Shown: positions 4,252-52,025, counted from the stretch's first letter. The stretch is 64,000 nucleotides of DNA from Dialister sp. (GCF_051885895.1 NZ_JBJEXP010000079.1:58146-122145), one strand, 5' to 3'. Numbers and translations are program-made. Notes: generated by a model not told the origin, from the letters alone.

Positions 4252-4492
4252 GAGGATCACCTCGTCTGTTTTAAGAAAGTCCTTTACTAAAACCGGAATC
4301 CCGTTTTTGTTATTTTACTCCCTTTTAAATGGCGGAAGCAATGGAAAATCACGTTAGCTGCTCCCTATCTGCGGGGGACCTGGTGTAGAAGGGGATGGCT
4401 GTCGGCTGGTCTATAAAACTCCGGCGTATTTATTAGTGTGCTGCCTTCATTCTCCATTTTCTATTTTCATTTTTTATTCATTCATTTCCCTG

Positions 4493-4521
4493 TTTACCAC
4501 GCTTTACCACAGTGATATAAT
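4493..4521 (+). promoter_or_regulatory. sigmaA-type promoter of gltB
   Basis: TTTACC-N17-TATAAT. Confidence 0.6.
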
Positions 4522-4547
4522 ACAAAATACAACTAAAGTTTTCCGAA

Positions 4548-4588
4548 GCCGGACATGACAGCTCTTTTGCTGTGGTGTCCGGCTTTTT
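4548..4588 (+). terminator. Terminator-like hairpin inside the gltB 5' leader (putative attenuator)
   Basis: GCCGGACATGACAGC / GCTGTGGTGTCCGGC stem followed by TTTTT, between promoter and RBS. Confidence 0.55.
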
Positions 4589-4610
4589 GTCTCACAGGGA
4601 GGCGCGGAGT

Positions 4611-7600
4611 ATGGGAGAAATATGGAGGGATCTGCCCCAGCCCCAGGGGCTCTATGATCCGAGAAATGAGCATGATGCCTGCGGCATCGGCTTTGTGGCA
4701 AATATTAAAGGAAAAAGGTCCTATGGGATTGTGGATGATGCGCTGAAAATTCTGGAAAATCTGAAGCATCGCGGCGGCGAGGGAGCAGACCAGAAGAGCG
4801 GAGACGGCGCAGGCATCCTGACCCAGATTCCCCATGAATTCTTCCAGCGGGAATGCGAAGTGCTGGGCTTTCATCTTCCTCCAGAAGGCGAATACGGCGT
4901 AGGCATGATTTTTGCCCATCGGTACAGGGATTTCCGGGAGGAGCAGAAGCGCATCTTCGAAGACATTGTGAAGGAAGAAGGGCAGACCGTACTGGGCTGG
5001 CGGGAAGTGCCTATCGACGAAAGCCTTATCGGCGAAGAAGCCAAGCGGATACGTCCCCATTTCCTGCAGGTTTTCATCGGCCGGGATCCCTCCATTAAGG
5101 AGCCCATGGATTTTGAGAGAAAGCTCTATCTGATCCGACGGCTGGCAGAAAAGAAGATTATCCCCCTGTCGGAAGGCATGGGCACCGATTTCTATATTGC
5201 CAGTCTGTCGTCCCGCACCATTGTATACAAGGGCATGCTTACCAGCGACCAGATGCGCCATTTCTATCTGGATCTTTCAGATCTGGATTTCAAGACAGCC
5301 ATGGCTCTCGTGCATTCCCGGTTCAGCACCAATACTTTCCCCAGCTGGGCCAGAGCCCATCCGAACCGCTATATCGTGCATAACGGGGAAATCAATACCA
5401 TTCAGGGAAATATCAACTGGCTGAATGCCAGAGAAAGCAAATCCCGGCCTTCCGACTATCCGGAACTGGCCAAGGCATTCCCCGTGGTAGATGCTACGGG
5501 AAGCGACTCCGCCATGTTTGACAACTGTCTGGAATATCTCCATATGGCCGGCCATTCCCTGGCCCATGCCATGATGGTCATGATTCCGGAACCCTGGGAA
5601 AAGAATCCTTCCATGAGCCAGGAAAAGAAAGATTTCTACCGCTATCATAATTTCATGATGGAACCCTGGGATGGGCCGGCGGCCATCTGCTTCTGCGACG
5701 GCGTGGTTATCGGCGGTATGCTGGACAGAAACGGACTTCGCCCTGCCCGGTACTATGTGATGAAGGATGACCGGGTGATCCTGTCTTCCGAAGTAGGCTC
5801 CGTACCGGTCAGCCAGGAGGATGTGCTCTACAAGGGCCGACTGGAACCGGGGAAAATTTTCCTTATTGATACATCCCAGCAGCGCATCGTGGGAGATGAG
5901 GAAATCAAGCACAACATGGCCAAGGCTCACCCCTACGGCGACTGGTGCAGGGAACATATTCTGGATCTGAAGGATCTGGAGAAAAAGGAAGTGAAGAAGC
6001 CGCTTCCGGCGGAACTGCTGGAGCAGCAGCGGGCGTTCGGCTACACCCAGGAGGATATGCGGGATATGATTATCCCCATGGCCCAGGATGGAAAAGATCC
6101 GGTGGGCGCTATGGGCATGGACTCCCCGCTTCCCGTGCTTTCGGAAAAGCCGCGCCTCCTCTATGACTATTTTCAGCAGAATTTTGCCCAGGTCACCAAT
6201 CCGCCCATTGATGCCATCCGGGAGAAAATCGTAACTTCCTCCACCGTATATGTGGGGAACATGGCCAATATCATGGATCCCGATGAAAAGGGCACGGCAG
6301 CCCTTGCCATGGACCGTCCCCTGCTGACCAATGAAGAAATGGAAGCGGTGAAGGAACTGAAGGACGAACGCCTCCGCCCGGTGGTGCTTTCCCTCCTGTA
6401 TCCGGCGGAAGGGAAGGGAGAACTCCAGAAGGCACTGGACGCTCTTTTTGATAAGGCACTTCAGGCAGTGAAGGACGGACATAATATTCTCATCCTCTCC
6501 GACCGCGGCGTGGACCGGGATCACCTGGCCATTCCTGCTCTTTTGGCGTCGGCGGGGCTGCATAACTTCCTCATCCGGGAAAAGGTGCGCCCGGACGTGG
6601 GCATTATCCTGGAATCAGGAGAACCGAGGGAAGTCCATCATTTCTGCACCCTTATCGGCTACGGCGCCACCGCCATCAATCCCTATCTTGCCCTGGATAC
6701 GGCAGGGGATCTGGCGGAAAAGGGCCGGCTTGGCGGGAAGACGGCAGAGGAAGCGCAGGAAAATTACATGAATGCTTCCGTAAAGGGCATCCTGGCGGTC
6801 ATGTCGAAAATGGGGATTTCCACGGTAAAAAGCTATCACGGTGCCCAGATTTTTGAAGCCGTAGGCATTGGGAAAGAAGTGGCCGATACCTTCTTCGGGC
6901 ATACCGCTTCTCCTGTAGGGGGCATGGGCATTGCGGATATCGAAGAGGAAAACCGGCGCCGCCATGAAGAGGCTTATGGTAAAAAGAGAGGCCTTCCTGC
7001 CGGGGATATTTTCAAATACCGCAGAAACGGCGACGAACCCCATATCCTGACAGCAGAAGCTATCCGCCTTCTCCAGCAGGCCTGCCGCAGCGGCAGCTAT
7101 GAACTGTATAAAGTCTATGCCAAAAAAGTGAATGAGCCTCTCATCCGGCTCCGGGATCTCCTGGATTTCACCTATCCTGCCGGATGCAGCATTCCTATTG
7201 AAGAAGTGGAAAGCGTGGAATCCCTTGTCCGCCATTTCCGCACCGGCGCCATGAGCTACGGCGCTCTCAGCAGGGAAGCCCACGAATGTATTGCCAGAGC
7301 CATGAACTCCCTCCACAGCCGAAGCAATACCGGAGAAGGCGGGGAGGATGCGGAGCGGTTTGCTCCCCTGCCCGACGGCAGCAGCATAAATGATGAAATC
7401 AAGCAGGTGTCCACGGCCCGCTTCGGCGTCACCGGCAATTACCTGGTTCATGGATCGGAAATCCAGATCAAGTGCGCCCAGGGAGCCAAGCCCGGCGAAG
7501 GCGGACATCTTCCGGGCAGCAAGGTGGATCCTGCCATTGCCCGCACCAGGCACTCCACGCCCGGCGTATCTCTCATTTCCCCTCCGCCCCATCATGATGT

Positions 7601-9161: not shown

Positions 9162-9653
9162 GCGGTTCCCGGGAAACAGAACTTCCTGCCCGGCATTTTC
9201 AAAAAGAAAGAGACGGCACCGGCGTGGCTCCCGCATTGGCAGATTTTTTTCTACGGGACATTTTCCTCCTTTTCCGGACTGTATAGATAGAGAAGCGAAA
9301 GGGCCCGGAAGGGCCGGCCATAGAATCCTGCCGGCGCGCATCCATGGAAGGCAGGATGGCCCGGCTCCTCCTTCATGATCCGCTTCTCCCGGCCGGCTGA
9401 AAAATAAATCCTGCAAAACTCCCTGCAATTCCCGGGGGTCTGACACATTACCGGGAATGGACAGGGAGTTTTTGCCGTGGAAGAAATGGGATATTCCACG
9501 GGATCTTCCTTTATGACAGGGAGCGGAAAGCCCCTTTTCAAAAGAGCGGTGTCTGGATTATAATTAAGAATGGAAAAATGGCAGTGAAAGCGAAACATAC
9601 CGGGAGGCAGGGCCAGGATGCATGCCTGCAGGGACGGGGAAAGGAGGTCTGCT

Positions 9654-10814
9654 ATGGGTCTGTCTATCAGGGATATACTGATATTGGATTATTTTGACGG
9701 GAAACCGCTGCACCATCGGATACCGCCCTACAAACTGCATATCTACGGCGCCGATGCCAATACCCGGATAGATTCGCTCATGGAAGACGGATGGATACGG
9801 ACCAGCCGTCCCCAGGAAACGGTGAATATGCTGCCGGACAAGGCGCTTTCCGATTTTCTTAAACGCTACGGACTTTCCGGAGAAGGCACCCATGCGGAAC
9901 TGACAGGACGGGTCATTGCCAAAATACCGGAAAAGGACTACGCCCACGGAGTGCCACGGATCTATGTGCTTACCAAAGAAGGCAAAGCGGAAATCGGCCA
10001 TCATATGGCCTACGTGCTGAATGTACGGGAAAATTACGGACTGACGGAAGGGGAGATCGGAGAATCCCAGAATGCGCTGACCCAGCGGGGAGAGCCCTTC
10101 ACCGCCAGGGATATCCTGTACCGCGCATTCCAGCAGAAAATTGCCATTTATACCATGGCGGGGGAATGGTCAAAGCTTAGAAATATGTACTACACCGTGG
10201 CCAATTTCTATCTGCGTATCAAAGATAACGACAAGGCTCTGCCCTATCTGTACCTGGTATTTTTCATGGATATGTCCGGTATGGGCAATAAAAACAACCT
10301 GGTTCCCTACGAGAACCTCTTCCCCACCCAGAAGGGCATGATCCTTCTGATGGATGAAATCCGAAAAGAGCTGCATCTGACCATGGACGATGTGAAGACT
10401 TCCTTCCTTTCCTCCATTGCCCGCATGGCCCCGCGGCTTCCCTTTTCCTATTTTTCACCGCAGATGATGGCCTCCATGCTGCTGGAACGGCTCCGCGGAC
10501 GGGATTTCAACGGCACCCGGTATATTGCGGACCGCAATGTGCCGGATCCCTCCTCCAAGGCCTATCATTACGTGCCCTACGGCAGAAGCGAAGCCCGGGC
10601 GCCGCTTCGCCGCACACCGGTAGTGAAACCGAAAATCATGGCTCCTCCGGTACTGCGGATGCCTACCTTTACCGCTCCGCCCCCTTTCCGGCCCAGCGAA
10701 AATTCTGCCTCCCTGCCCCGTATTCCTAAGCCGGAACCGGAAAAGCCGGTCATGCCCAAGCCTTTGAAAAGAGAGAAAAAAGGAATACTGGCAAAGATCA
10801 GGGACCTGTTCTGA
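9654..10814 (+). CDS. Hypothetical protein: SAP-like helix-extension-helix, TPR-like helical core, Pro/Lys-rich tail
   Basis: GGAGG RBS; LSDFLKRYGLSGEGTHAELTGRV resembles SAP consensus; C-terminal PVVKPKIMAPP...PKPEPEKPVMPKP. Confidence 0.7.
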   Translation: MGLSIRDILILDYFDGKPLHHRIPPYKLHIYGADANTRIDSLMEDGWIRTSRPQETVNMLPDKALSDFLKRYGLSGEGTHAELTGRVIAKIPEKDYAHGVPRIYVLTKEGKAEIGHHMAYVLNVRENYGLTEGEIGESQNALTQRGEPFTARDILYRAFQQKIAIYTMAGEWSKLRNMYYTVANFYLRIKDNDKALPYLYLVFFMDMSGMGNKNNLVPYENLFPTQKGMILLMDEIRKELHLTMDDVKTSFLSSIARMAPRLPFSYFSPQMMASMLLERLRGRDFNGTRYIADRNVPDPSSKAYHYVPYGRSEARAPLRRTPVVKPKIMAPPVLRMPTFTAPPPFRPSENSASLPRIPKPEPEKPVMPKPLKREKKGILAKIRDLF

Positions 10815-10927: not shown

Positions 10928-11004
10928 GCGTTTGTAGCTCAGCTGGATAGAGCAGCGGTTTCCTAAACCGTGTGTCGGGAGTTCGAATCTCCCCAAGCGC
11001 ACCA
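10928..11004 (+). tRNA. tRNA-Arg(CCT)
   Basis: GCGTTTG acceptor, TAGCTCAGCTGGATAGAGC D-arm, anticodon loop TTCCTAA, GTTCGAATC T-loop, encoded CCA; upstream TTTACA-N17-TAAAAT promoter. Confidence 0.97.
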
Positions 11005-11076: not shown

Positions 11077-11327
11077 GAAGTGAGATGCCATGTTTTTATC
11101 AGTCATTTCCGACTCAACTATTAAACCATTCTAAGCCATTCATTTAACTTACTGTATCTGCATAATATATATATACTACTATGTTGCTATTGCATATTTT
11201 CTTTTCTAATGCATAAAAAAGACCTATTTCTACTTAAAGAAACAGGTCGTATTTTTCTTATCTGTGATTTGATATCTTTTTCTCTTTCACCATGTCATGT
11301 GAATTTCAGGGAACGGGCTCCCCTTTT

Positions 11328-12209
11328 CTATTTCCTTGCCACGGCGCCTACTGCCAGAATGATGAAAACCATGCCGGCCAGCTGCCAGAAGCTGAAAAGG
11401 AGGTGGAAGATGAAGAAGGAGAGGATGATGGAGGAGAGAGGCTCTATGGCGGAAATGATGCTGGCTTCCGTGGGAAGTATATAGGCCACGCTGCCGAGAT
11501 AAAGGACGAAGGAGCAGATGGTGCCGAAGAGGACTACGTAGGCGAAGGCCAGGAGCACCGGCGCATCGATGGTACCGGTGAAGGGCGTGAGAAGGGCCAC
11601 GGGGCAGAGGAAAAGAGAGGCCAGAAACATGCCCCAGCCTACGATCAGCGGCGCACCGTATTTCTTGATGATTTTCACCGGCTCCACGGTATAGAGGGCG
11701 CAGGCCAGAGCGGAGAGAAGGCCCCAGAAAAGGGCTTTCCCGGAAATGGCCAGATTTTCGAAATCACCGCCGGTAGCTATGAGGGCGGTGCCGGCTACGG
11801 CAAAGATCGTACAGAAGATTTCGACCATTCGAGGCCATCTTTTTTCAGAAATACAGTACCAGAAAATAATGAGGATGGGCATGAGGTACTCCAGAATGGT
11901 GGCGGTGGGCGCATTGCTGTAGCGGATGGAGGCAAAGTAGCAGTACTGGGTGCCCAGCATGCCGAAGGCGCCGAATATAAGAAGGGAGAGACGGTCCTTT
12001 TTGTCTTTCCAGATGGCAAAGGTTTTTCCATAGAGGAAATGGGTGATGAGCAGGAGCAGCAGCCCGGCGAATAAAAGACGGAAGAAGGTCAGCCATTCGG
12101 GAGCAATATTTTCATTAATGAGCAGAAACTGGCCTGCAATACCGCTGCTTCCCCAGAGCGCAGCACCGGTGGAGGCAAAAAGCAGCCCTTTTTTTCTATC
12201 ATGGGTCAT
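11328..12209 (-). CDS. DMT/EamA family transporter
   Basis: Two EamA repeats, about 10 TM helices, LWGSSG..., ASIISAIEP; start ATG 12209 after AGAAAGGA. Confidence 0.88.
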   Translation of the reverse strand: MTHDRKKGLLFASTGAALWGSSGIAGQFLLINENIAPEWLTFFRLLFAGLLLLLITHFLYGKTFAIWKDKKDRLSLLIFGAFGMLGTQYCYFASIRYSNAPTATILEYLMPILIIFWYCISEKRWPRMVEIFCTIFAVAGTALIATGGDFENLAISGKALFWGLLSALACALYTVEPVKIIKKYGAPLIVGWGMFLASLFLCPVALLTPFTGTIDAPVLLAFAYVVLFGTICSFVLYLGSVAYILPTEASIISAIEPLSSIILSFFIFHLLFSFWQLAGMVFIILAVGAVARK

Positions 12210-12327
12210 GAGATCATCCTTTCTCTGCCGTATTTTTAGTACATATATCATAGCAAATGGAAAAAGGGACTGCAAGAAAAGGGGATTATGGAGCAGGGGC
12301 CGCTGACAGAAAGCAGAAATCAGATGA

Positions 12328-12747
12328 TCATCGGGGGAGAAAGTCTCGGCTTTCCAGCTTATGCACCAGAGCCTGCACTTTCGAATCGATTTCCCGGATC
12401 ACGGCAAGGTACGCTTCATTTCCCCGGCCGGCGGGATCTTCCAGCTGCCAGTCTTCGTCAAAAGGGCGTCCCATCCACGGACAGCCTGCAAGGCAGCCCA
12501 TGGAGATCAGGATGTCAGCACGGGGAATCCGGTCAATGGATTTGGGCATCTGCTCTTTTTCCATATCGATATGGTACAGATCTTTCATCAGCTTCAGGGC
12601 AGCGGGGTCGATGCAGCCAGCCGGCTCGGTTCCGGCGGAGCAGCTTTCAAAAAGGGCGGCGCCGTACTTTCTGCCCAGGGCTTCCGCAATCTGGCTTCGG
12701 CAGGCATTGTGGGTGCAGATGAAAGCAACCAGCGGTTTATGATTCAT
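12328..12747 (-). CDS. arsC: Arsenate reductase (LMW-PTP fold)
   Basis: CTHNACRSQ P-loop, SAGTEP, SMGC...CP, WQLEDPAG; downstream of acr3. Confidence 0.92.
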   Translation of the reverse strand: MNHKPLVAFICTHNACRSQIAEALGRKYGAALFESCSAGTEPAGCIDPAALKLMKDLYHIDMEKEQMPKSIDRIPRADILISMGCLAGCPWMGRPFDEDWQLEDPAGRGNEAYLAVIREIDSKVQALVHKLESRDFLPR

Positions 12748-27392: not shown

Positions 27393-27475
27393 GACAAAGA
27401 TGTCTGATAGGAGTATTCATATCAGGCTTTTTCTTTTGGACAAAGGCGCCCGGGAATTTTCCGGGCGCCTTTGTC
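27393..27475 (+). promoter_or_regulatory. Putative ANTAR-target leader with terminator
   Basis: GAC-AAAGAT-GTC and GAC-AAAGGC-GCC hexaloops (A1,G4); terminator 27402-27437; 15-bp hairpin 27439-27475. Confidence 0.5.
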
Positions 27476-27536
27476 ATTGGAAGGAAAGCCGGTGATTCCA
27501 TCAGACCTCTTTTGTTCAGGAGAGGGAGTGGGTTTT

Positions 27537-29351
27537 ATGAAAAAAATGGAAGCGGTTGTACGAAAGTGGCCTCTGCTTCTGGCTGCCCTGACCATGCCGA
27601 CCGTGGTTATGGCTGCAGATACGGAAGGCCGGTATTCTTCGGTGGATACCATCTGGGTGCTTTTAGGCGCTATCCTGGTTTACTTTATGCAGCCCGGGTT
27701 CGCCATGGTGGAAACAGGACTGACCCGTGCAAAGAATGCGGGCAATATCGTCATGAAGAATTTCATGGATTTTGCTCTGGGCACCGTGGTATTCTGGTTT
27801 CTGGGCTTTGGTCTCATGTTTGGTACGGACATCGGCGGCATCATCGGCACGCCGGACCTCTTTGTCACCCATTTCCAGGTGCCTGATGATGCAGGCTATA
27901 CACCCATGACATACCTCTTCTTCCAGACGGTATTCTGTGCGACCTCGGCTACCATCGTTTCCGGGGCTATGGCAGAACGGACCAAGTTTTCCGCCTACTG
28001 CATCTATTCCGTAGTGATTTCTCTTCTGATTTATCCTATTTCCGGACACTGGATCTGGGGCGGCGGCTGGCTCTCCCAGCTGGGCTTCCATGATTTCGCC
28101 GGCTCCACCTGCGTTCATCTGGTAGGCGGTGTATGTGCCCTGGTAGGAGCATGGCTCCTGGGACCAAGAATCGGCAAGTACAATAAGGACGGCAGCGTAA
28201 ATGCCATTCCGGGCCACAGCATTACCCTGGCCTGCCTGGGCATGTTCATCCTGTGGATGGGCTGGTTCGGATTCAACGGCGGCTCCACGGTTTCCATGAC
28301 CGGTGATGAAGTCATCGAATCTGCAGGCCATATCATGATTACCACCAACCTGGCTGCAGCAGTAGCTGCCTGCACCACCATGATCGTTACCTGGGTGAAA
28401 TACGGCAAACCTGATGTTTCCATGACACTGAACGGCGGCCTGGCCGGCCTCGTTGCCATTACCGCCGGATGCGATACCGTAACGGTACCCGGATCCTTCT
28501 TCATCGGCCTTATCGCCGGCGTATTCATTGTCTATGCTGTTGAATTCATTGACCAGAAAATGAAAATCGATGATCCCGTAGGCGCTGTAGCAGCTCACGG
28601 CGGATGCGGCGCACTGGGCACCATCCTCACCGGTTTCTTCTCCGAATCAGACGGTCTTCTCTATACGGGAGATCCTCATTATCTCTTCATCCAGATCCTG
28701 GGTGTAGTGGTTGTAGCTCTTTATGTATTCATTGCCATTAATATTGTATTCCGCCTCATCCGTGCCACCATCGGTCTCCGCGTCAGCAGAGAAGAAGAAA
28801 TCAACGGCCTGGACTTCGAGGAACACGGTCTGGCTTCCGCTTATGCCGATTTCATGATGGTTCCGGAAACAGCAGAGGAAAAGATAGAAGCCGGCAAGGC
28901 TCCGGCCAATGCAGTAGAAATCCCCATGGACAAGGAAGTACCGGAAACGGTGGTACCGAAAGAACCGCCGGCAGACGGACACCGTCTCTACTGTGTCACC
29001 ATTATTACTTCGGACAAGCGGTTTGAAATTCTGAAAGCTTCCATGGAAGCCATCGGCATTACCGGCATGACTGTCACCAAAGCCCTCGGGTTCGGTCTGG
29101 AAAAGGGACAGACCCAGATGTACCGCGGCGCTGCCGTTTCTGCCAAACTTCTGCCTAAGGTGCGTGTGGATATCGTCGTATCCAAGATCTCCCCCAGAAC
29201 AGTGATTGAAGTGGCCAAGAAAGCCCTGTATACCGGCAAGTACGGCGACGGCAAGGTCTTTGTTACCACTGTGGATAATGCAGTGAAGATCCGTACCGGC
29301 GAAGAAGGCTACGATGCCCTGCAGGATTATCCGATTGAAGAAAGTAAATAA
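27537..29351 (+). CDS. amtB: Ammonium transporter fused to a C-terminal PII (GlnK-like) domain
   Basis: FMQPGFAMVETG, HDFAGSTCVH, WFGFNGGS, DDPVGAVAAHG; then GFG...YRG...LLPKVRVDIVV...TGKYGDGKVF...IRTGE. Confidence 0.95.
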   Translation: MKKMEAVVRKWPLLLAALTMPTVVMAADTEGRYSSVDTIWVLLGAILVYFMQPGFAMVETGLTRAKNAGNIVMKNFMDFALGTVVFWFLGFGLMFGTDIGGIIGTPDLFVTHFQVPDDAGYTPMTYLFFQTVFCATSATIVSGAMAERTKFSAYCIYSVVISLLIYPISGHWIWGGGWLSQLGFHDFAGSTCVHLVGGVCALVGAWLLGPRIGKYNKDGSVNAIPGHSITLACLGMFILWMGWFGFNGGSTVSMTGDEVIESAGHIMITTNLAAAVAACTTMIVTWVKYGKPDVSMTLNGGLAGLVAITAGCDTVTVPGSFFIGLIAGVFIVYAVEFIDQKMKIDDPVGAVAAHGGCGALGTILTGFFSESDGLLYTGDPHYLFIQILGVVVVALYVFIAINIVFRLIRATIGLRVSREEEINGLDFEEHGLASAYADFMMVPETAEEKIEAGKAPANAVEIPMDKEVPETVVPKEPPADGHRLYCVTIITSDKRFEILKASMEAIGITGMTVTKALGFGLEKGQTQMYRGAAVSAKLLPKVRVDIVVSKISPRTVIEVAKKALYTGKYGDGKVFVTTVDNAVKIRTGEEGYDALQDYPIEESK

Positions 29352-29366
29352 AGATTCCCGTGCATG

Positions 29367-29398
29367 AAAAGGACTGCGGCATGCCGCAGTCCTTTTTG
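29367..29398 (+). terminator. Intrinsic terminator after amtB-PII
   Basis: AAAAGGACTGCGGC-AT-GCCGCAGTCCTTTT. Confidence 0.85.
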
Positions 29399-29458
29399 CA
29401 TGGGATGGAGGGAAAAGGGAATAAGGTATACTTGTTCTTCTCCTTCTGAAAACTCAAC

Positions 29459-29922
29459 CTTTTCACAGAGTTATTCACAACTTGTTCATAACTTTGAAAT
29501 GAGAATGAAGAATATAGACATAAAGCAGGGAAAAGAGAACTGTCTACTGGAGATATACACAAAAATATGTGAATCATTGTGAATAAAAAGGGTAGAGAGT
29601 AGAAAAAGGGAAAATGAATAGCCCTCTATGTGGGGATTTCAGGAGAAATTCAGTTATCCACAGGGGGAATATCTGTGAATAGGCTTTTCACAGTCTGCCG
29701 GGCAGAGAGAAAAAATAGAGAAAAGATTCTGTAAACAAAGGGTCAACATATGATTTCACGTTAAAAAATCACGAAAAATGGAGAATACGGCGGAAAATAA
29801 AAGGAAAGGATCTGTCCGTATCCAGTGGAATGACAAAAATCAATATAAGAATACACAGGAATAAGGCCCCTGAAAGGAACTTGTGAAAAGAGGTATACTA
29901 TTATTTTCTTCACAATTTCACA
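29459..29922. promoter_or_regulatory. DnaA-box cluster
   Basis: 3 perfect TTWTNCACA boxes (29471, 29578 rev, 29654) plus 7 one-mismatch boxes (29459, 29553, 29568, 29674, 29684, 29882, 29906). Confidence 0.8.
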
Positions 29923-30009
29923 GGAGCTGCCTCCGGAGAGTAAAACGCCCCGGTATCATACAGGAAACTATTGACTTTTGGGGAAGTTCAGTTTAAAATA
30001 GCTATAATT

Positions 30010-30270
30010 TCAAAGAAGCAGGGAAGAGAAGAGTACCCGTGCAGGAATGGCAAAGAGAGCTCCGCTTGGTGGGAAGGAGCGCAGGATCGCATGGAGAAGA
30101 TGGCCTCTGAGCTTGATCTGCCGAATGGTGAAGCAGTCCGGGAGTCTCCCGTTACAGAGACAGGGTATCAAGGCATGTCCGGCGTACCTGCAGAGGCTTT
30201 TCCGGTGACGGAAAAGCGAAATTGGGTGGTAACACGAGTATCTCGTCCCGAAAAGGGACGGGATTTTTTT
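30010..30270 (+). ncRNA. Met T-box riboswitch upstream of metA
   Basis: Promoter TTGACT-N17-TAAAAT (29971-29999); AGTA/GAA loop-E, AGAGA bulge, specifier GAAG-ATG-G at 30100, GGGTGGTAACACG at 30224, terminator 30240-30270. Confidence 0.92.
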
Positions 30271-30310: not shown

Positions 30311-31261
30311 TTGCCGATTAAAATTGCAGATGGACTTGACGCCATTACAGAACTGAAAAAGGAAGGCATTGTGACCATCGGGGAGGAACGGGCGCGAACC
30401 CAGGATATCCGTCCATTGAAGATTCTCATCCTGAATCTCATGCCCATCAAGAAACCGACGGAAGTGCAGCTTCTCCGCCTTCTGGGGGATACACCGCTGC
30501 AGCTGGATGTGGACTTTGCCCGGATTGCATCCAGGGAAACCACCCATACGGATAAATCCTATCTGGATGAAAATTACCTGACCTTTGAGGACATTAAGGA
30601 CAGAAAATACGACGGTTTTATTATTACCGGGGCGCCGGTGGAAAAAATCCCCTATGAGGAAGTGGACTACTGGCCGGAAATGCTGCAGTATTTCAACTGG
30701 GCTGACACCCATGTATTCTCCACCCTCCATTTCTGCTGGGCGGCCCAGGCAGGCCTGTACCGGGATTACGGTGTGGAAAAGCGGATCCTTCCGCGGAAGC
30801 TGTTCGGCATTTACCAGTACAACCTCACCCTGGCCTACCATCCGCTGCTTCGGGGTTTTGATGACCGCTACTTTATTCCCCAGTCCCGCCACACCTCCAT
30901 TGATGACAGAAAAGTGGATTCGGTGCCGGAGCTTACGGTGCTTTCCCGCTCTGAGGAAAACGGCATCAATATTATTTCCGATAAGGAATCCCGCCGCATT
31001 TTCGTGCTGGGCCACTTTGAATACGACCTTCGCACCCTGGAATGGGAATACAAGAGAGACCGGGAAAAGGGCCTGCCCATCCGCCTGCCGGAAAATTACT
31101 ATCCCTATGATGATCCCCAGGAAAAACCCCGGTTCGTATGGTGCAGCTACGCCCATCTTTTCTATCATAACTGGCTGAATTTCGTGTATCAGGAAACGCC
31201 GTACAGTCTGGATAACCTGATGCCCTTCAATGTGCATAATCCCCTGCACGGGAAAGAATAA
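30311..31261 (+). CDS. metA: Homoserine O-acyltransferase, acetyl-type predicted
   Basis: TTG start after AAGGAGG (MPIKIADG); ILNLMP, TGAPVE (Glu at the specificity position, acetyl-type), HFCWAAQA, GHFEYD. Confidence 0.93.
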   Translation: MPIKIADGLDAITELKKEGIVTIGEERARTQDIRPLKILILNLMPIKKPTEVQLLRLLGDTPLQLDVDFARIASRETTHTDKSYLDENYLTFEDIKDRKYDGFIITGAPVEKIPYEEVDYWPEMLQYFNWADTHVFSTLHFCWAAQAGLYRDYGVEKRILPRKLFGIYQYNLTLAYHPLLRGFDDRYFIPQSRHTSIDDRKVDSVPELTVLSRSEENGINIISDKESRRIFVLGHFEYDLRTLEWEYKRDREKGLPIRLPENYYPYDDPQEKPRFVWCSYAHLFYHNWLNFVYQETPYSLDNLMPFNVHNPLHGKE

Positions 31262-33534: not shown

Positions 33535-33659
33535 TGGGAAGCTGCGGGAATGCCCACTGCTCTGCAGCAGAGGATTTCTTCAGAACTTTGGCAAAGAGAA
33601 GCACCTTTCGGGAAATTTTTCTTGACTTGTGGATTTCTCAATGATATAGTTAATGCAAC

Positions 33660-33920
33660 TTCATAAAGGCAGTGAAGAGAAGAGTACATGAAACAATCCG
33701 GCCAAGAGAGCCCCGTCCGGTGAAAAGGGGTGCGGAAGGTTTGATGGAAGATGGCCTCTGAGCCTGGTGCGCTGAATGATGAGGCGGCCCGGGAGCTCCC
33801 GTTACAGAGACAGGGTATCAAGGCGGCAGCCGGCGTACCTTATGAGATCGGTGAAGCGATTCACCGGTGAAATTGGGTGGTAACACGGTCCTCCGTCCCT
33901 TTCGGGATGGAGGATTTTTG
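33660..33920 (+). ncRNA. Met T-box riboswitch upstream of metQ
   Basis: Promoter TTGACT-N17-TATAGT (33622-33650); specifier GAAG-ATG-G at 33751; GGGTGGTAACACG at 33875; terminator 33889-33919. Confidence 0.92.
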
Positions 33921-33965
33921 TTTTGCTGTATGAATTTTTATAAGACAGGATCAGGAGGTTTTATT

Positions 33966-34793
33966 ATGAACTGGAAGAAAACATTAGCACTTTCCCTGGC
34001 AGCACTGGCTGTGGCCGGCGCTATTTCCGGCTGCGGCGGCAGCGACAAGAAGGATGCCAAGGCTCCGGCGGAAAAGAAGGAAATCACTGTAGGCATTACA
34101 CCGGGGTATTCTGAGCAGGTGATGGAATTTGTGGCTAAGGAAGCAGAAAAACAGGGACTGAAGGTGACGCTGAAATCCTTCTCTGATTATGTCACTCCTG
34201 ACCAGGCCTTGGCTGCCGGAGACATCGATCTCAACTCTTTTCAGCACGGTCCGTTCCTGGAAGCCTTTAATGAAAAGAACGGCACCAAGCTGGTTTCCAT
34301 TGGAAATACCTACCTGGCTCCTCTTCGCATTTACTCCAGCAAACTGACGGATATCAAAGATGTGCCGGACGGCGCTAAGGTATCCATCCCCAATGATCCC
34401 TCCAACGGCGGCCGTGCCCTGCTTCTTCTGGATCATCAGGGCCTGCTGAAGCTGAAGGAAGGCACGGATCCGACCAAGGCTGTGGTAGGAGATATTGCGG
34501 AAAATCCGAAGAACCTGCAGATTATCGAACTGGAAGCAGCCCAGCTGCCCCGTTCCCTGGATGATGTATCCATTGCGGTCATCAATGCGGGCTATGCAAA
34601 GTCTGCCGGACTGGACTCCAAGAAAGCACTGGCTACCGAAGACAATACATCTCCCTATGTCAACATTATTGCAGCCCGTGAACAGGACAAGGATAATCCG
34701 ACCTATCAGAAATTTGTCAAGATTTTCCAGAGCGACGCTGTAAAGAAATATATTAATGACAACTTCAGCGACGGACTGATTCCTGCTTTCTAA
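33966..34793 (+). CDS. metQ: Methionine-binding lipoprotein (NlpA/MetQ)
   Basis: Lipobox ISGC, FSDYVTPD, NSFQH, IPNDPSNGGRAL, QLPRSLDD, SPYVN. Confidence 0.93.
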   Translation: MNWKKTLALSLAALAVAGAISGCGGSDKKDAKAPAEKKEITVGITPGYSEQVMEFVAKEAEKQGLKVTLKSFSDYVTPDQALAAGDIDLNSFQHGPFLEAFNEKNGTKLVSIGNTYLAPLRIYSSKLTDIKDVPDGAKVSIPNDPSNGGRALLLLDHQGLLKLKEGTDPTKAVVGDIAENPKNLQIIELEAAQLPRSLDDVSIAVINAGYAKSAGLDSKKALATEDNTSPYVNIIAAREQDKDNPTYQKFVKIFQSDAVKKYINDNFSDGLIPAF

Positions 34794-38541: not shown

Positions 38542-38566
38542 TCCCCTGGAAAGAAGGAAATTGAAT

Positions 38567-40666
38567 ATGGGGAATTATAATTCAAATTACGGGAGTTCTG
38601 ACAGTTCTTTTTTTGCACTCCGCCAGGCTGACGGTAAGGTGCTTGGCCGTGTCCGCCCGGGAGTGAAGCTGTCTACGCCGCAGCCGGGAGTGAAGGATTA
38701 CCGTTTTTTTGTGGATCCGCTCTCCCCGCTGCCCAAGGGATTTGAAGAATCGGAAAAGCATGGATTTACAGGATTTATGAGCCGTATCGGCTGCGGGTAC
38801 AATGCTTTTGCCAATGAAGCGGATGCCCTGAATTATTTAAAGACCGTTTTCGGTGATGCATTCGTCACCTTTACGCCGGCCATCCGGAATAATAAGTTTT
38901 TTGTGCTGGATGATATGCAGCTGGAAGGCAGGACGCCTTTCATGGATGTGGATACCCATTTTTATCCCATTCCCGCTTTCGGCACCGTAGACCAGCCGCC
39001 CTTTTCCGGGGATATCAACAAGTTCTGCAGCCATATTCTGAATGGAAAGCCGCTGCCCGGCCTTTCCAAGAAATACTGGAATAATGATATACAGCCCCGG
39101 GTAATTATGGCAGCCACCAGAAATTTTGAGGGAAAGATCGGCCCCTGGGTGGTGTTTGCACCCCTCTATGACGATGCCTTTGACTCCACCGTTATCGGAG
39201 AAGGAGGCGCCTACTTCCATGTGAAGAACAATGGACCTCTGGGCTATGGAGTCGTGGACTTCAAAAATTCGGAACTCTTTTCCCATATCCTGCGCTGCAC
39301 CCATTCGCCCCTGTGGTTCGTGCCGGAGGAATTTATCCCCGATTTCCGGCTGAAGCTGAAGCCGGTGCCGGCAGACGGCGACCTGCTTGCAGACAGCGGC
39401 GTGCTGGTGAATCCTTTCTCCTCCCAGGACAGCATCATCCTTTCGGAAGAAGGAAATTCATTGGAAGGGAAAAAATTCAGAGAAGAGGATATGGAGGAAC
39501 TGATCCGGAGTCTTACATCGAAAGAAGAGAAGAAGCCGGTTAATGACGGAGAAGAGGAAATCACTTCCGAAGAAAAAGAAAGGCCGCTGGATGAGGCGGG
39601 CTTCCTGGAAAGACTGTCAGAAGCAGCAGAACGGTCCGGCCTTCTTTACGCAGAGGAAGACCTCATCAACTTTCATATTTCCCTTAAATCGTCCCGCCTG
39701 ACCATCCTGGCAGGAATGAGCGGCACCGGCAAATCGGGACTGGTGCGCCTTTACGGAAGAGCCCTGGGCCTTCCGGAAGAACAGGTGCGCTTCCTTGCCG
39801 TGCGTCCTTCCTGGATGGATGACGGAGACATCCTGGGATATGTGGATGTGAAGAATATGGTATACCGCAGTGCGGATACGGGACTGGCGGAATTTCTGGC
39901 GGAAGCGGCAGCGCATCCGGAGAAGATGTACCTGATCTGCTTTGATGAAATGAATCTGGCCAGAGCAGAGCACTATTTTGCCCAGTTCATTTCCGTACTG
40001 GAAAAAGAGGAAAATCCGGTGATCTGCCTGTACAATCCATCCCTGAAGGGAAAGCTGTACAATGGAGAATCCTATCCGGCGGAAATCCCTGTGGGAAGGA
40101 ATGTGCTCTTTACAGGGACGGTGAATGTGGATGAATCGACCTATCACTTTTCGGACAAGATTCTGGACAGGGCCAATGTGATTACCCTGCATCAGGGAAA
40201 GTTCCGCGACCTGCTCCAGCTGGGGAAGAAGGAAAAAATTGATTATCCGGAAATCCCGTCATCCCTCTTTGAAAGCTTCTGCCATGCGGACGGGCTGGGC
40301 CTTTCGGAAGAGGAACTGGATCTTCTGGACGCACTGAATGATGCTTTCCGGAAAAGCGGGATCCAGTGCGGCATCGGATTCCGTGTTGCCTGCCAGATGG
40401 GCCGGTATCTGGAAAATATACCGGAGGGACTCTCCTTTAACCGGGAAGAAGGGCTGGATGCCCAGGTGGTGCAGCGCATACTGACCAAGCTTCGGGGCTC
40501 TTCCCAGCAGCTCAGCACCCTGGTGTCCACCAATGACAAGGGAGAGCTGACCGGCTCCCTTCTGGATGTGCTGAACCGCTTCCATGGACTTTCTCCATTC
40601 ACTTCAGCCCGCAGCGTGCTGGAAGAAAAAGCCAGGGAGCTGAAACTCTATGACTACACCATCTAA
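38567..40666 (+). CDS. mcrB: McrB-like AAA+ GTPase (NxD variant) with uncharacterised N-terminal domain
   Basis: AGMSGTGKS Walker A, VRPSW, CFDEMNLAR Walker B, TVNVDES, DKILDRAN; start ATG 38567 (TTG 38561 alternative). Confidence 0.85.
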   Translation: MGNYNSNYGSSDSSFFALRQADGKVLGRVRPGVKLSTPQPGVKDYRFFVDPLSPLPKGFEESEKHGFTGFMSRIGCGYNAFANEADALNYLKTVFGDAFVTFTPAIRNNKFFVLDDMQLEGRTPFMDVDTHFYPIPAFGTVDQPPFSGDINKFCSHILNGKPLPGLSKKYWNNDIQPRVIMAATRNFEGKIGPWVVFAPLYDDAFDSTVIGEGGAYFHVKNNGPLGYGVVDFKNSELFSHILRCTHSPLWFVPEEFIPDFRLKLKPVPADGDLLADSGVLVNPFSSQDSIILSEEGNSLEGKKFREEDMEELIRSLTSKEEKKPVNDGEEEITSEEKERPLDEAGFLERLSEAAERSGLLYAEEDLINFHISLKSSRLTILAGMSGTGKSGLVRLYGRALGLPEEQVRFLAVRPSWMDDGDILGYVDVKNMVYRSADTGLAEFLAEAAAHPEKMYLICFDEMNLARAEHYFAQFISVLEKEENPVICLYNPSLKGKLYNGESYPAEIPVGRNVLFTGTVNVDESTYHFSDKILDRANVITLHQGKFRDLLQLGKKEKIDYPEIPSSLFESFCHADGLGLSEEELDLLDALNDAFRKSGIQCGIGFRVACQMGRYLENIPEGLSFNREEGLDAQVVQRILTKLRGSSQQLSTLVSTNDKGELTGSLLDVLNRFHGLSPFTSARSVLEEKARELKLYDYTI

Positions 40667-42401
40667 GCTGCCCTTCAGCCTGTCCTTTTCCGGCGGCTGG
40701 GATAAAGGGACACATCCTTTTACCCGGTTCACGGAAAATCCGTCGGAGCTGGGGGAAGATATGATGCCGGGGCTGACGCTGACGGAAAACCAGGACATTT
40801 ATGTCCGCTTTGACGGGCCTAAAGGATTCCGCTTTACCATGGACGGACTGGATGTGGTCACCATTCCCGGACAGGAAAGAGAAAACGGGCAGACCTATAT
40901 TGCCCCCTTCCGGCGGCAGGATCAGCCGCTTCTCCTTTTTGAAGGACAGGATTTTCCCCTGGTGCCGGGCTACTATGTGCTGACGGTGGAAGGAAACGGG
41001 AAAAGCTGGTACGGGATTATGGAAATTACGCCCAAGTACATGGGCAAACAGAGCTGGCAGGACATGCGGGACGAGCTGGCCGATGAAATCCGCACCCTGT
41101 CCTTTGATTTCATGAAAAAGAACATCCATATTTCCAAGGCATTGGAAGGGGCGCTGGGTCTCAGCACATCCATGCTCCTCCGCTTTTATACCATCAGCGA
41201 TGAGTCGCCGGTGGTGCTGAATGTGCTGGATGAGCTTTCCCATACAGCCAACGCCCGTCTGGTACTGAAGCTGAAGCAGACCCGTCTGGAGGAGGGGCGC
41301 CGCATGGATCCCCATATCCGTCCCCAGCACGTGAAAGAAAGGACGGGCATGGGACGCATGCCTGCCCTGTATACGGAAATCACCAGAGATGTGGCGGAAA
41401 ACCGCTTTGCCAAGTCCATTCTTCTGTCGCTGGACCGCATTCTGCAGCAGTTTCTGGAAGAAATCAGAGGCCCTGTGGAAAGGCTGGAGCGAAAGCAGGC
41501 GGAATTACGGAAATATACCCGGGGACTGGAATATAAAACCGGTGAAAAGGCGCTGTCCCGTCTCCGCCTGTATGAACAGCGGGCACGGCGCATTAAGAAC
41601 AGCATCCGCCGCGTCTCTCTGGCGCCCTGGTTTGAAGAGGCCCGGGGCGAGATGCCCGGCGAAGTGCCTATGGCTGTTTTTATGGATCCAAGGTACAGCG
41701 TGCTCTACCGGCTGTATAAGAATCTCTCGGATCCGGCGGGAAGCCTGGATGTGTCCAGTTTCTACCAGTTCCAGTGGAAACGGACGGATAAACTGTATGA
41801 GCTGTGGGGCTTCCTCCAGTTCATCAAGGCGCTGACAGCGAAGGGCTGGGAGCTGGAGGAAGGCATTTCCGTCATTAAAGAGGAAGGACGGTACCGCCTG
41901 TCCAGTTTGGAGTCAGGTACGGAAATCAAGCTGCGGCGCGGCGGTGAGGAAGTGCATCTGACCTATGACGGAATTCTTCCTTCCTCTTCTTCGGAAACGG
42001 ATCGGGAAAATCATCCTCTGTATACCAATAATTCCCACCGCCAGCCGGATCTCCGCCTGGATTATTACCGGGAGGGACTTTATTACGGCTCCCTGGTGGC
42101 GGATTTCAAATACAGGGATATTCTCTTCCTCTGGCAGGATGAAACAAGAAGCGCCAGCCTTCGCCGCCAGTTCAACGCGTACAGGGACATGAATACCCGG
42201 TTTTACCGGGATTATGATGAAACCTCTTCCCTCCGCGACAGCCGGCCGGTGAAGGAGGTATGGGCTCTGTTTCCCCGGGAGATTCCGGGAAGAAGTGATG
42301 AAGACTACAGCCTCCGCTTCATTCCTCTGGCGCCGGGACTCAAAAGCAACGGGCGTCTGGCGGAGGAACTGGAAACCTACCTGGCTTCCCTGCGGGAATG
42401 A
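40650..42401 (+). CDS. mcrC: McrC-like DUF2357 / PD-(D/E)xK nuclease
   Basis: Beta-rich N-terminus, ENRFAK, YSVLYRLY, TDKLYELW, RQPDLRL...ADFKYR; overlaps mcrB stop by 17 bp. Confidence 0.82.
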   Translation: MTTPSKLPFSLSFSGGWDKGTHPFTRFTENPSELGEDMMPGLTLTENQDIYVRFDGPKGFRFTMDGLDVVTIPGQERENGQTYIAPFRRQDQPLLLFEGQDFPLVPGYYVLTVEGNGKSWYGIMEITPKYMGKQSWQDMRDELADEIRTLSFDFMKKNIHISKALEGALGLSTSMLLRFYTISDESPVVLNVLDELSHTANARLVLKLKQTRLEEGRRMDPHIRPQHVKERTGMGRMPALYTEITRDVAENRFAKSILLSLDRILQQFLEEIRGPVERLERKQAELRKYTRGLEYKTGEKALSRLRLYEQRARRIKNSIRRVSLAPWFEEARGEMPGEVPMAVFMDPRYSVLYRLYKNLSDPAGSLDVSSFYQFQWKRTDKLYELWGFLQFIKALTAKGWELEEGISVIKEEGRYRLSSLESGTEIKLRRGGEEVHLTYDGILPSSSSETDRENHPLYTNNSHRQPDLRLDYYREGLYYGSLVADFKYRDILFLWQDETRSASLRRQFNAYRDMNTRFYRDYDETSSLRDSRPVKEVWALFPREIPGRSDEDYSLRFIPLAPGLKSNGRLAEELETYLASLRE

Positions 42402-49576: not shown

Positions 49577-49677
49577 GGCAGAAGGGAAGAATTCCGACCT
49601 CAATGCATAGAATTTCCATAGGTGAAAAAGTCCCCTTTTCATGTTTCTTTTTCTATGATACAATTACATTCATCTAC

Positions 49678-49771
49678 GGCGATGGAGTTCGCCGGGCTTC
49701 GGGAAGGCTTTTCCCGCCGAATGCTCTTTGAGATGATGACTCCTGTTCCTTTTGGGAACAGGAGATTTTTT
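49678..49771 (+). ncRNA. Fluoride riboswitch with terminator platform
   Basis: GGCGATGGAGTTCGCC ... AATGCT ... TGATGACTCCT; terminator CTCCTGTTCC/GGAACAGGAG+T run overlaps the aptamer 3' end. Confidence 0.93.
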
Positions 49772-50312: not shown

Positions 50313-52025
50313 ATGACATCAGGACAATGGAATCGGCAGACCGTCAGGGCCTTGTGGCAGCTGACAGCCCGGTATTGGAAAAGTGAAGAAAAAAAGAGCG
50401 CCTGGCTTTATCTTTCAGGCATTGTTATTCTTACGATTGCAGCGGTATACATGACCCTCCTTTTGAATGACTGGTTTAATGAGTTTTACAGCGCCCTGCA
50501 GAATTACGACAGCGAAGCGGTGTATCATGGACTCATCCGATTTACGGCCATTGCCTTCGGACATATTGCTTTCTCCGTCTATGCCTACTATCTGCAACAG
50601 ACCCTGGCCCTTCGCTGGCGCCGCTGGATGACGGAAGAGTACCTGTCCCGCTGGACATCCCGCCAGATGTTTTACCGGCTGGAAATGTTTTCTTCCGGCC
50701 GTTCCGATAACCCGGATCAGCGTATTTCCGAGGATATCAACCTCTTTACTTCCCGGACACTGTCCTTTATGTCCGGCCTCCTTCGGGCAGTAACTACTAT
50801 TTTCTGCTTTATCTTTGTGCTCTGGTCTCTGTCGGAGCCTTTGTCCTTTACCCTGGGCGGCGGTACCTTCCATGTATACGGATACCTGGTATGGACAGCT
50901 CTGGCCTATTCCGTCATCGGCACGTGGATTACCCATAAGGTGGGGCATAAGCTGGTGGGACTGAACTTTGTGCAGCAGAAGCTGGAGGCGGATTTCCGCT
51001 ATGCCATGGTGAGGCTTCGGGAAACGTCGGAAAGCGTGGCCTTTTATCACGGCGGAGGAGAGGAGAAGAAAATCCTTTCCGGCCGCTTTCATAAGCTTCT
51101 GGTGAATACGGTATTCATTATCCGCAAACAGAAACAGCTCTCCTGGCTTACCAACTCTTACGCCCAGATAGCCATTATATTTCCCTTCGTGGTGGCGGCA
51201 CCCAGATATCTGTCAAAAAATATTTCCCTGGGCGGACTGATGCAGGTGGCCAACTGCTTCGGCAAGGTGCAGGAGTCCATGTCTTACTTCGTGGATGTAT
51301 ATTCCTCTCTGGCAGAATGGATGTCCTGCGTGGAACGACTGCTTACCTTTGATGAGCATATGGACCATATGCTGGAAGAAACCAGACGCCGGCAGGGCCG
51401 GCTGGAACGAAAGGAAGGGGCCCCCTCCCTTTCCCTTCAGGGAGTCAATGTGGATCTTCCCGACGGAAAACGGCTTCTTTCCTCTTTATCCTGCACGATT
51501 CGGGAGGGGGAAAAGGTTATACTGAAAGGCTCTTCCGGCTCCGGAAAATCGACTCTTCTCCGCGTACTGGCAGGGCTGTGGCCCTACGGGGAAGGGAAAA
51601 TGATCCTTCCTCCGGCAGGGGAAACACTCTTCATTCCCCAGAAACCCTACATGCCTATCGGGACACTGGCGGAAACGGCAATGTATCCCGGAGGCCGCGG
51701 AAATCGGGAAGAACTGGTGAACCTTATGAAAACATGCGGCCTTTCCCACTGGATAGGACAGCTGGATGCAGAAGGGGACTGGAGTCACATCCTGTCTCTG
51801 GGAGAACAGCAGAAGCTGGCATTTGTCCGTATTTTCATGACCCGGCCCCGCTGGGTATTCCTGGATGAAGCCACATCCGCCATGGATGAGGAAACAGAAG
51901 ACCGGCTCTACCGCCTTCTGGTATCACTTCCCGGCATTACCGTCATCAGCGTGGGACACCGATCCACCCTGGACAAGTACCATAACCGCACTCTTCGCAT
52001 AGAAGAAGGCAGGCTGGTGGGATGA
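50313..52025 (+). CDS. ABCD/YddA-like ABC transporter (fused permease-ATPase)
   Basis: DNPDQRISED, EADFRYAMVRLRE (EAA-like), GSSGSGKST, LSLGEQQK, LDEATSA. Confidence 0.9.
   Translation: MTSGQWNRQTVRALWQLTARYWKSEEKKSAWLYLSGIVILTIAAVYMTLLLNDWFNEFYSALQNYDSEAVYHGLIRFTAIAFGHIAFSVYAYYLQQTLALRWRRWMTEEYLSRWTSRQMFYRLEMFSSGRSDNPDQRISEDINLFTSRTLSFMSGLLRAVTTIFCFIFVLWSLSEPLSFTLGGGTFHVYGYLVWTALAYSVIGTWITHKVGHKLVGLNFVQQKLEADFRYAMVRLRETSESVAFYHGGGEEKKILSGRFHKLLVNTVFIIRKQKQLSWLTNSYAQIAIIFPFVVAAPRYLSKNISLGGLMQVANCFGKVQESMSYFVDVYSSLAEWMSCVERLLTFDEHMDHMLEETRRRQGRLERKEGAPSLSLQGVNVDLPDGKRLLSSLSCTIREGEKVILKGSSGSGKSTLLRVLAGLWPYGEGKMILPPAGETLFIPQKPYMPIGTLAETAMYPGGRGNREELVNLMKTCGLSHWIGQLDAEGDWSHILSLGEQQKLAFVRIFMTRPRWVFLDEATSAMDEETEDRLYRLLVSLPGITVISVGHRSTLDKYHNRTLRIEEGRLVG

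Follow-up and report, generated by a model that had tools for sequence, protein, structure and literature searches.

We uncovered a dense, non-origin cluster of DnaA boxes in DNA from a Dialister (Veillonellaceae, Negativicutes) close to D. succinatiphilus; its most likely role is as a chromosomal locus adjusting the level of active initiator. It was recognized in a continuous stretch of 64,000 nucleotides, hereafter the window, whose MetA shares 96–97% identity with its counterparts in D. succinatiphilus YIT 11850 and in Dialister MAGs. Within 29459-29922, 11 boxes depart from TTWTNCACA at no more than one position, and three of these are perfect; the 11 boxes span 456 bp. As judged from sequence comparisons, these boxes are selectively conserved, in a fixed order, spacing and orientation, in at least 19 lineages.

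The whole cluster (29459..29922, no strand assigned; GC 37%; non-coding) contains, beyond these 11 boxes, two weaker ones, and its first nine boxes are organized as three triads. Triad 1 (29459..29491) consists of B1 (29459-29467, + strand, CTTTTCACA), the perfect B2 (29471-29479, +, TTATTCACA) and B3 (29483-29491, −, TTATGAACA), with start-to-start distances of 12 and 12 bp and a minus-strand order of (+)(−)(−). In triad 2 (29553..29586), B4 (29553-29561, +, ATATACACA) is followed after 6 bp by B5 (29568-29576, −, TGATTCACA, read as TGTGAATCA within the triad) and after another 1 bp by the perfect B6 (29578-29586, −, TTATTCACA, read as TGTGAATAA), the start-to-start distances being 15 and 10 bp. 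Triad 3 (29654..29692) has the order (+), (−), (+) and comprises the perfect B7 (29654-29662, +, TTATCCACA), B8 (29674-29682, −, CTATTCACA) and B9 (29684-29692, +, CTTTTCACA). The right-end group (29882..29922) features B11 (29882-29890, −, CTTTTCACA), a −10-like element, GGTATACT, at 29892-29899, and the tandem boxes B12 (29906-29914, +, TTCTTCACA) and B13 (29914-29922, +). The latter and a site at 29849 are the two weak boxes, which have two mismatches and retain the CACA core. The first-pass annotation of this DNA had counted about ten boxes, and every one that it listed was recovered at its position; a motif scan added those at 29483 and 29553. The GGTATAC words it had noticed near both ends of the cluster are likewise present, at 29425 and 29892.

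Several further elements are interspersed with the boxes. A conserved TGAGAAT (29499..29505) is a possible degenerate box (TCATTCTCA on the minus strand, with two mismatches). Directly to the left of B4 is a CTGTC(C/T) motif (29540..29545, +); other lineages read CTGTCCAC at this site, resembling a weak TTGTCCACA-type box. A second conserved CTGTCC block (29811..29830, +; CTGTCCGTATCCAGTGGAAT) contains the short palindrome TCCAgTGGA, and between triad 3 and this block lies a partly conserved A-rich spacer (29700..29750, +; GAAAAAA..GAAAAGATTCTGTMAA..GGTCAA), which is not a DnaA-trio run.

The cluster is genuine and strongly enriched over chance. As the block is AT-rich (37% GC), it was shuffled on its own: dinucleotide shuffles of 29400-29949 contained 1.6 ± 1.2 boxes and never more than 7; none of 2000 such local shuffles reached 11 boxes or three perfect ones. 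It is also the densest 500-bp stretch in the window, with 11 boxes against at most 6 anywhere else, and across some 1.07 Mb of related DNA, the module itself excluded, a single T-rich place attains 8–9 boxes. This place (L015 1000-1750; also seen in L010 and L013) has 8–9 near-consensus boxes per 500 bp, but these hits, T-rich words such as TTTTCCATA and TTTTTCATA, mostly miss the CACA core, and hence it is probably not a DnaA site.

The cluster occupies a 960-bp gap between a gene for an AmtB–PII fusion (27471-29351, +; Pfam Ammonium_transp and P-II) and metA (30311-31261, +; HTS family). Its left boundary is the intrinsic terminator of amtB-PII (29371..29396, +; a hairpin with a T-run) and its right boundary is the metA promoter (29971-29999, +; TTGACT-17-TAAAAT), which lies outside the cluster; thus, the boxes form a separate 460-bp block. 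Downstream of the promoter is a T-box leader with its terminator (30012-30253, +; 88.5 bits, E 1e-19), which is missed at the default threshold because its score is just under the Rfam gathering score of 93. A second T-box leader, about 76% identical to that of metA, is found at approximately 33657-33860 upstream of an NlpA/MetQ lipoprotein gene (33867-34793), and the two paralogous leaders suggest a methionine T-box regulon. The AmtB–PII protein itself combines an ammonium transporter with a C-terminal P-II (GlnK-like) domain in a single 626-aa ORF; both Logan contigs with the metA of the window start inside this gene, pointing to an assembly break or strain variation there.

Elsewhere in the window, a fluoride riboswitch (49669-49752, +; 35.9 bits, above the gathering score) follows a set of TRAP transporter genes and lies about 560 bp upstream of a gene for an SbmA/BacA-like ABC protein (50313-52025); no crcB-type gene was identified beside it. 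The region 38561-42401 codes for a 701-aa ORF without a Pfam match followed by a protein with DUF2357 and PD-(D/E)XK (PDDEXK_7) domains, a pair that is also present in L001 and looks like an McrBC-like or other restriction/defence pair. Three ORFs of 161–398 aa with no Pfam family (9618-10814, 11292-12074 and 12257-12742) surround a tRNA at 10928-11001; these surroundings may be an integration spot or a set of lineage-specific genes.

The conservation of the cluster was established along two routes. From species-representative genomes, 40 loci encoding MetA relatives were taken. Four other species with an amtB-linked cluster (L003, L004, L005, i.e., D. succinatiphilus, and L007) share the layout of the window, and in L009 the cluster lies 5 kb downstream of metA, behind a different gene. 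In an alignment of six species found via metA homology alone, the boxes stand out as islands of identity amid diverged sequence, and triad 2 is nearly invariant, with one variable position each in B5 and B6. Metagenome contigs were then scanned with the triad 2 pattern ATATACACA-N6-TGTGAAT-N3-TGTGAA, which is matched by 108 contigs from the human gut. Taken together, the copies from both routes split into 19 groups at <88% identity, with mutual identities of 57–86% over 450 bp, and one of the groups could be identified as D. hominis by its MetQ protein (BBK26244.1).

For the footprint statistic, one representative was used for each of the 19 groups and identity was measured to the window. The conservation of triad 2 in the metagenome copies holds by construction, as this triad was used to find them, whereas the six boxes unused in the search (B1–B3 and B7–B9) have a mean identity of 82%, as against 44% in 369 non-box columns (Mann–Whitney p = 2e-19). 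Across the 19 lineages, the values are 0.78, 0.97 and 0.81 for B1, B2 and B3 of triad 1, and 0.73, 0.83 and 0.82 for B7, B8 and B9 of triad 3; triad 2 is the most conserved core of the cluster. The CTGTCC motif, in both its occurrences, and TGAGAAT are as conserved as the boxes over the same lineages; they could represent weak boxes or mark where a partner protein binds. The right-end motif TTCTTCACAATTTCACAG is kept in the amtB-linked species and in L111, and is absent from the type B loci described below and from D. hominis. Thus, the check in relatives recommended by the first-pass annotation shows the box layout recurring in 19 sequence groups, including D. hominis. In the searchable literature, no comparable DnaA-box cluster was found described for Dialister or the Negativicutes. 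Among sequencing runs, those found to contain the cluster sequence were all DNA runs from wastewater, with no RNA run among them.

In contrast to this constancy, the surroundings of the cluster show at least five gene arrangements among the groups. Arrangement A, that of the window, has amtB and metA both pointing rightward on either side of the cluster, with a 1–2 kb insertion separating the cluster from metA in L003 and L005; in L005 (D. succinatiphilus YIT 11850), a 382-aa transposase-like ORF and a run of Ns lie between them at 4433-5581. In arrangement B, the commonest apart from that of the window, genes which we take to encode MGMT and PTP, from their recognized motifs PCHRV and CX5R, run toward the cluster, followed by 300–600 bp of short repeats and an amtB gene pointing back at it. 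This places the cluster between two 3′ ends and metA 7–10 kb away, and a T-box–metQ unit comes after amtB. In arrangement C (L049), amtB and the PTP gene converge on the cluster. In D. hominis the cluster stands between aldo-keto reductase (AKR) genes and metQ, and in L163, a locus of this species, a gene for an rve-family integrase adjoins it. Finally, in groups D and E, which are AT-richer, the flanking genes are all on one strand and the cluster is adjoined by a gene presumably coding for a DUF2156-like protein, a name that rests on our own recognition.

The orientation of the cluster relative to amtB is inverted between arrangements A and B; no single inversion linking the two fits the maps. 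When read in the orientation of the cluster, the GC skew on its two sides is positive in type A, whereas type B and groups D and E have a negative skew on both; in D. hominis it is weak and without a switch at the cluster. That the internal structure stays constant while neighbors and orientation vary argues that the function probably resides in the module itself, rather than in a neighboring gene, and is orientation-independent. The locus also looks like a hot spot for rearrangement. Several Dialister species carry blocks of short repeats, degenerate and either tandem or dispersed, rightward of the cluster (L009 12620-12939; +300 to +800 from the pattern in L065, L109 and L148; approximately 4660-4800 in L003 and 3760-3900 in L005), with repeat units that include GTGGCTAG, GGGATTAG, GTGACTG/A, GAACCYGCT, GCTATCC and GTGAGACA.

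Some other interpretations of the block were considered and rejected. As a structured RNA or riboswitch, it is contradicted by the Rfam search, which finds the downstream T-box only, and by RNAalifold on the six species, which detects covariation only in the amtB terminator, the sole helix in the alignment with compensatory changes; the other predicted “helices” in the cluster are inverted DnaA boxes that never vary. ORFs of 22–72 aa do exist in the cluster, but a small protein is not compatible with an indel-rich alignment in which only the boxes are conserved. An origin in a plasmid, phage or other mobile element was discarded, as blastn against PLSDB and INPHARED gave no match and the pattern was absent from the viral contigs of IMG/VR.

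The cluster is not oriC, there being neither a switch in skew or strand, nor a convincing trio module, nor an adjoining dnaA or dnaN. Almost all 2-kb bins of the 64 kb have a positive GC skew, and the cumulative skew climbs through the cluster without a minimum. The aro operon, amtB, metA and the following genes are all on the + strand, in keeping with the earlier remark that gene strand bias does not switch here. The skew inversion by which the first-pass annotation would have recognized a displaced origin is absent at the cluster in the window and likewise for type B, D. hominis and groups D and E. That annotation had also noted that dnaA, dnaN, rpmH and gidA are not nearby; indeed, none is seen over the 29 kb leftward and the 34 kb rightward of the cluster, the ORFs of at least 150 aa in the window having no dnaA, dnaN or gidA-type domain and its six-frame translation no DnaA or L34 motif. 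The 108 other loci likewise lack dnaA and dnaN. In a basal unwinding system, a DnaA box is separated by no more than 16 bp from at least three DnaA-trios, behind which the DNA is AT-rich (PMC8287927). Scanned by this rule (box, spacer ≤16 bp, trios read 3′-GAT-5′; PMC8287927 and PMC7561715), none of the boxes in the cluster is followed by four or more trios; the three-trio matches are inter-box spacers with 0–2 consensus trios and no AT-rich element behind them, and no conserved AT-rich unwinding element was found beside any box. The orientation of the rule was checked against E. coli R1 only.

The site thus differs from the oriC of Firmicutes (incA/B and incC flanking dnaA), which it resembles in its dense bidirectional boxes in AT-rich intergenic DNA, in having no trio run, unwinding element, adjacent dnaA/dnaN, or skew and strand switch. 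That it could yet be a real displaced oriC, or half of a split origin, has this typical box density and base composition in its favor, as well as a possible location near the origin and the fact that about 15% of predicted origins are without a recognizable DnaA-trio module (PMC8287927). Nevertheless, with the skew retaining its sign across the site in the window, type B, D. hominis and groups D and E, the flanking genes running the same way, the orientation relative to skew differing among lineages and neither unwinding elements nor the initiator gene found nearby, we consider this highly improbable. A use of DnaA as a transcription factor, coupling a local promoter to replication status, deserves somewhat more attention, though it too is unlikely. 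Candidate promoters would be that of metA, the −10-like GGTATACT at 29892 overlapped by the tandem boxes, or that of an unrecognized small transcript. B12 and B13 lie 7–23 bp downstream of the −10-like TATACT, 49 bp separate the last box from the metA −35 further downstream, in D. hominis the opposite end of the cluster faces metQ, and in groups D and E the cluster is upstream of the DUF2156-type gene; moreover, the DnaA-box clusters (DBCs) of B. subtilis regulate sda, ywlC, yydA and dnaA (PMC3245932). However, no target gene is common to the lineages, and the boxes are not found at the promoter of the same gene across relatives, their neighbors being different. The suggestion in the first-pass annotation that the purpose of the cluster is control of metA fares poorly on these grounds: the 1–2 kb insertion, with its transposase-like ORF in one case, separates the two in D. 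succinatiphilus and one other species, the type B cluster sits between the 3′ ends of two convergent genes at 7–10 kb from metA, and D. hominis and two other groups have unrelated neighbors at the cluster. Further, the right-end boxes are missing in type B and D. hominis, no conserved small ORF or structured RNA was found, and a dozen boxes far exceed what a promoter needs.

It is conceivable, if quite improbable, that the array belongs to another protein, which would recognize the TGTGAAT/ATTCACA-like words or CTGTCC, and that its likeness to DnaA boxes is coincidental. Position 5 of the boxes is indeed strongly biased to T (TTATTCACA), and the two CTGTCC motifs and TGAGAAT match the boxes in conservation. 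Yet, it is the full 9-mer that is conserved, including its TTAT half and often a trailing G as seen in strong E. coli boxes, and three sites are perfect for TTWTNCACA. A reading of the TGTGA/TCACA words as CRP/FNR-type palindromes (TGTGA-N6-TCACA) was rejected, as the spacings do not fit. The remaining alternative, which we hold to be possible but doubtful, accepts DnaA as the ligand and casts the site as DARS-like, in which case head-to-head DnaA would release ADP, with ATP-DnaA being regenerated and initiation promoted. It draws on triad 2, the most conserved element, wherein a (+) ATATACACA is followed after 6 bp by a (−) TGTGAATCA and after 1 bp by a (−) TGTGAATAA; the DARS1 core in the MG1655 sequence comparably has a (+) TTATCCACT, 5 bp, a (−) TGTGGATAA, 3 bp and a (−) TGTGTATTA. 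The orientation is that of boxes I–III of DARS1, at start-to-start distances of 15/10 bp versus 14/12 bp, and the minus strand of triad 1 shows the order (+)(−)(−) as well, its boxes being spaced by 12 and 12 bp. In both DARS1 and DARS2, the three-box core has I opposing II and III head-to-tail with II, the same arrangement as in triad 2, and functionally DARS is defined by its head-to-head pair I/II, which drives ADP release (PMC6868365). However, an order of (+)(−)(−) or (+)(+)(−) is expected in a quarter of random triads, so that triad 2 shows a resemblance to DARS and not membership; besides, no IHF-type site was found in 29400-29969, and the DARS cores measure about 50 bp, whereas the Dialister triad sits inside a cluster of 12 boxes. 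The biochemical setting is also different: RIDA/Hda makes ADP-DnaA abundant in E. coli and its relatives, and it is only in these that DARS has, to our knowledge, been described; we know of no Hda in Firmicutes, and the DnaA of B. subtilis exchanges its nucleotide quickly by itself.

As its best explanation, about which we are moderately confident, the Dialister cluster is a non-origin DnaA-assembly locus of the kind represented by the B. subtilis DBCs and E. coli datA. Thus, of the earlier proposal, an equivalent of the datA/DARS type or DnaA control of metA, the first part stands to the extent that a non-origin cluster with footprints in 19 lineages fits the datA/DARS/DBC pattern, while the second finds no support. 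B. subtilis has six non-origin DBCs that restrain initiation, and their combined deletion raises the ori:ter ratio 1.37-fold; deletion of single DBCs has little effect and a plasmid-borne DBC does not complement (PMC3245932). Firmicutes commonly have DBCs close to oriC, with gene neighbors that vary from species to species, and no structural feature was found that distinguishes the active clusters of B. subtilis (PMC3245932). Like these, the Dialister cluster is an intergenic array of consensus boxes outside oriC, in a Firmicutes lineage, with varying gene neighbors; it may be origin-proximal as well, and a restraint of initiation would be expected of it. It departs from them in keeping its order, spacing and orientation in at least 19 lineages while the neighbors change, and in that one cluster per genome is known so far in Dialister, as opposed to six. 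A non-origin cluster in the oriC-proximal region of Streptomyces coelicolor (Smulczyk-Krawczyszyn et al. 2006, cited in PMC3245932) is likewise thought to modulate replication. It differs in phylum and box consensus and has no sequence relationship to ours.

E. coli datA offers the other parallel, being a single conserved chromosomal unit with several high-affinity boxes, as proposed here for the Dialister cluster. It lowers the initiation potential, needs an IHF-binding site and stimulates the hydrolysis of DnaA-bound ATP. There are also differences: the 5 boxes of datA are spread over about 1 kb, compared with 11–13 boxes in 460 bp in Dialister, and the IHF consensus WATCARNNNNTTR, the counterpart of the site needed by datA, has no match on either strand of 29400-29969.

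With respect to location, metA is found 41.7 kb into the complete chromosome NZ_CP181256.1, on the positive-skew strand; in a 2.52-Mb contig it is on the negative-skew strand, with 165 kb left to the contig end. Such positions would be expected if both records began at the origin and the region lay on opposite replichores; the publication describing the closed MAG gives no account of how its start was chosen, the contigs that encode proteins of the window are short, and the near-complete contigs of D. hominis are not rotated to a common start. Together with the precedent from B. subtilis (PMC3245932), these two near-complete Dialister chromosomes hint that the cluster may be origin-proximal rather than remote.

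Based on these sequence features and analogies, we propose that DnaA binds the cluster and that this binding would affect initiation negatively. The high-affinity boxes (TTATTCACA twice and TTATCCACA once) could nucleate DnaA, and the flanking boxes of the three triads, 10–15 bp apart from start to start, would then allow further DnaA to join cooperatively, such that a single chromosomal site might hold roughly a dozen initiator molecules. Once the locus is replicated, its copy number would double, and DnaA might be drawn from oriC or altered while bound. A loaded locus would thereby lower the amount or activity of the initiator available to oriC, most strongly when duplicated, and re-initiation would be damped. 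Simple titration may be too simple an account, given the little effect of single DBC deletions and the failure of a plasmid-borne DBC to complement in B. subtilis; the conservation of the exact geometry and of the two CTGTCC motifs suggests that the complex formed at the cluster might be more specific than a passive sink. A stronger version, to which we attach only a small probability, is that of a portable, architecture-constrained module, in which the head-to-head triad and CTGTCC, with a possible partner protein, do more than titrate.

Only for datA, DARS1 and DARS2 of E. coli is there a mechanistic understanding of how DnaA is controlled at sites other than the origin, whereas in B. subtilis the understanding is only phenomenological. 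The Dialister site also marks a hot spot for rearrangement in a genus abundant in the human gut. Should it prove irrelevant to replication, it would be one more DnaA-box cluster of the sort already expected in Firmicutes. If the portable-module version were true, it could catalyze a change in the nucleotide or oligomeric state of DnaA, and would be the first catalytic site of the DARS/datA type outside Proteobacteria. At 460 bp, the cluster offers a compact in vitro substrate for the DnaA of Negativicutes. Moreover, with an architecture fixed over at least 19 lineages while its surroundings vary, it amounts to a natural experiment that shows which features of such a locus are under selection.
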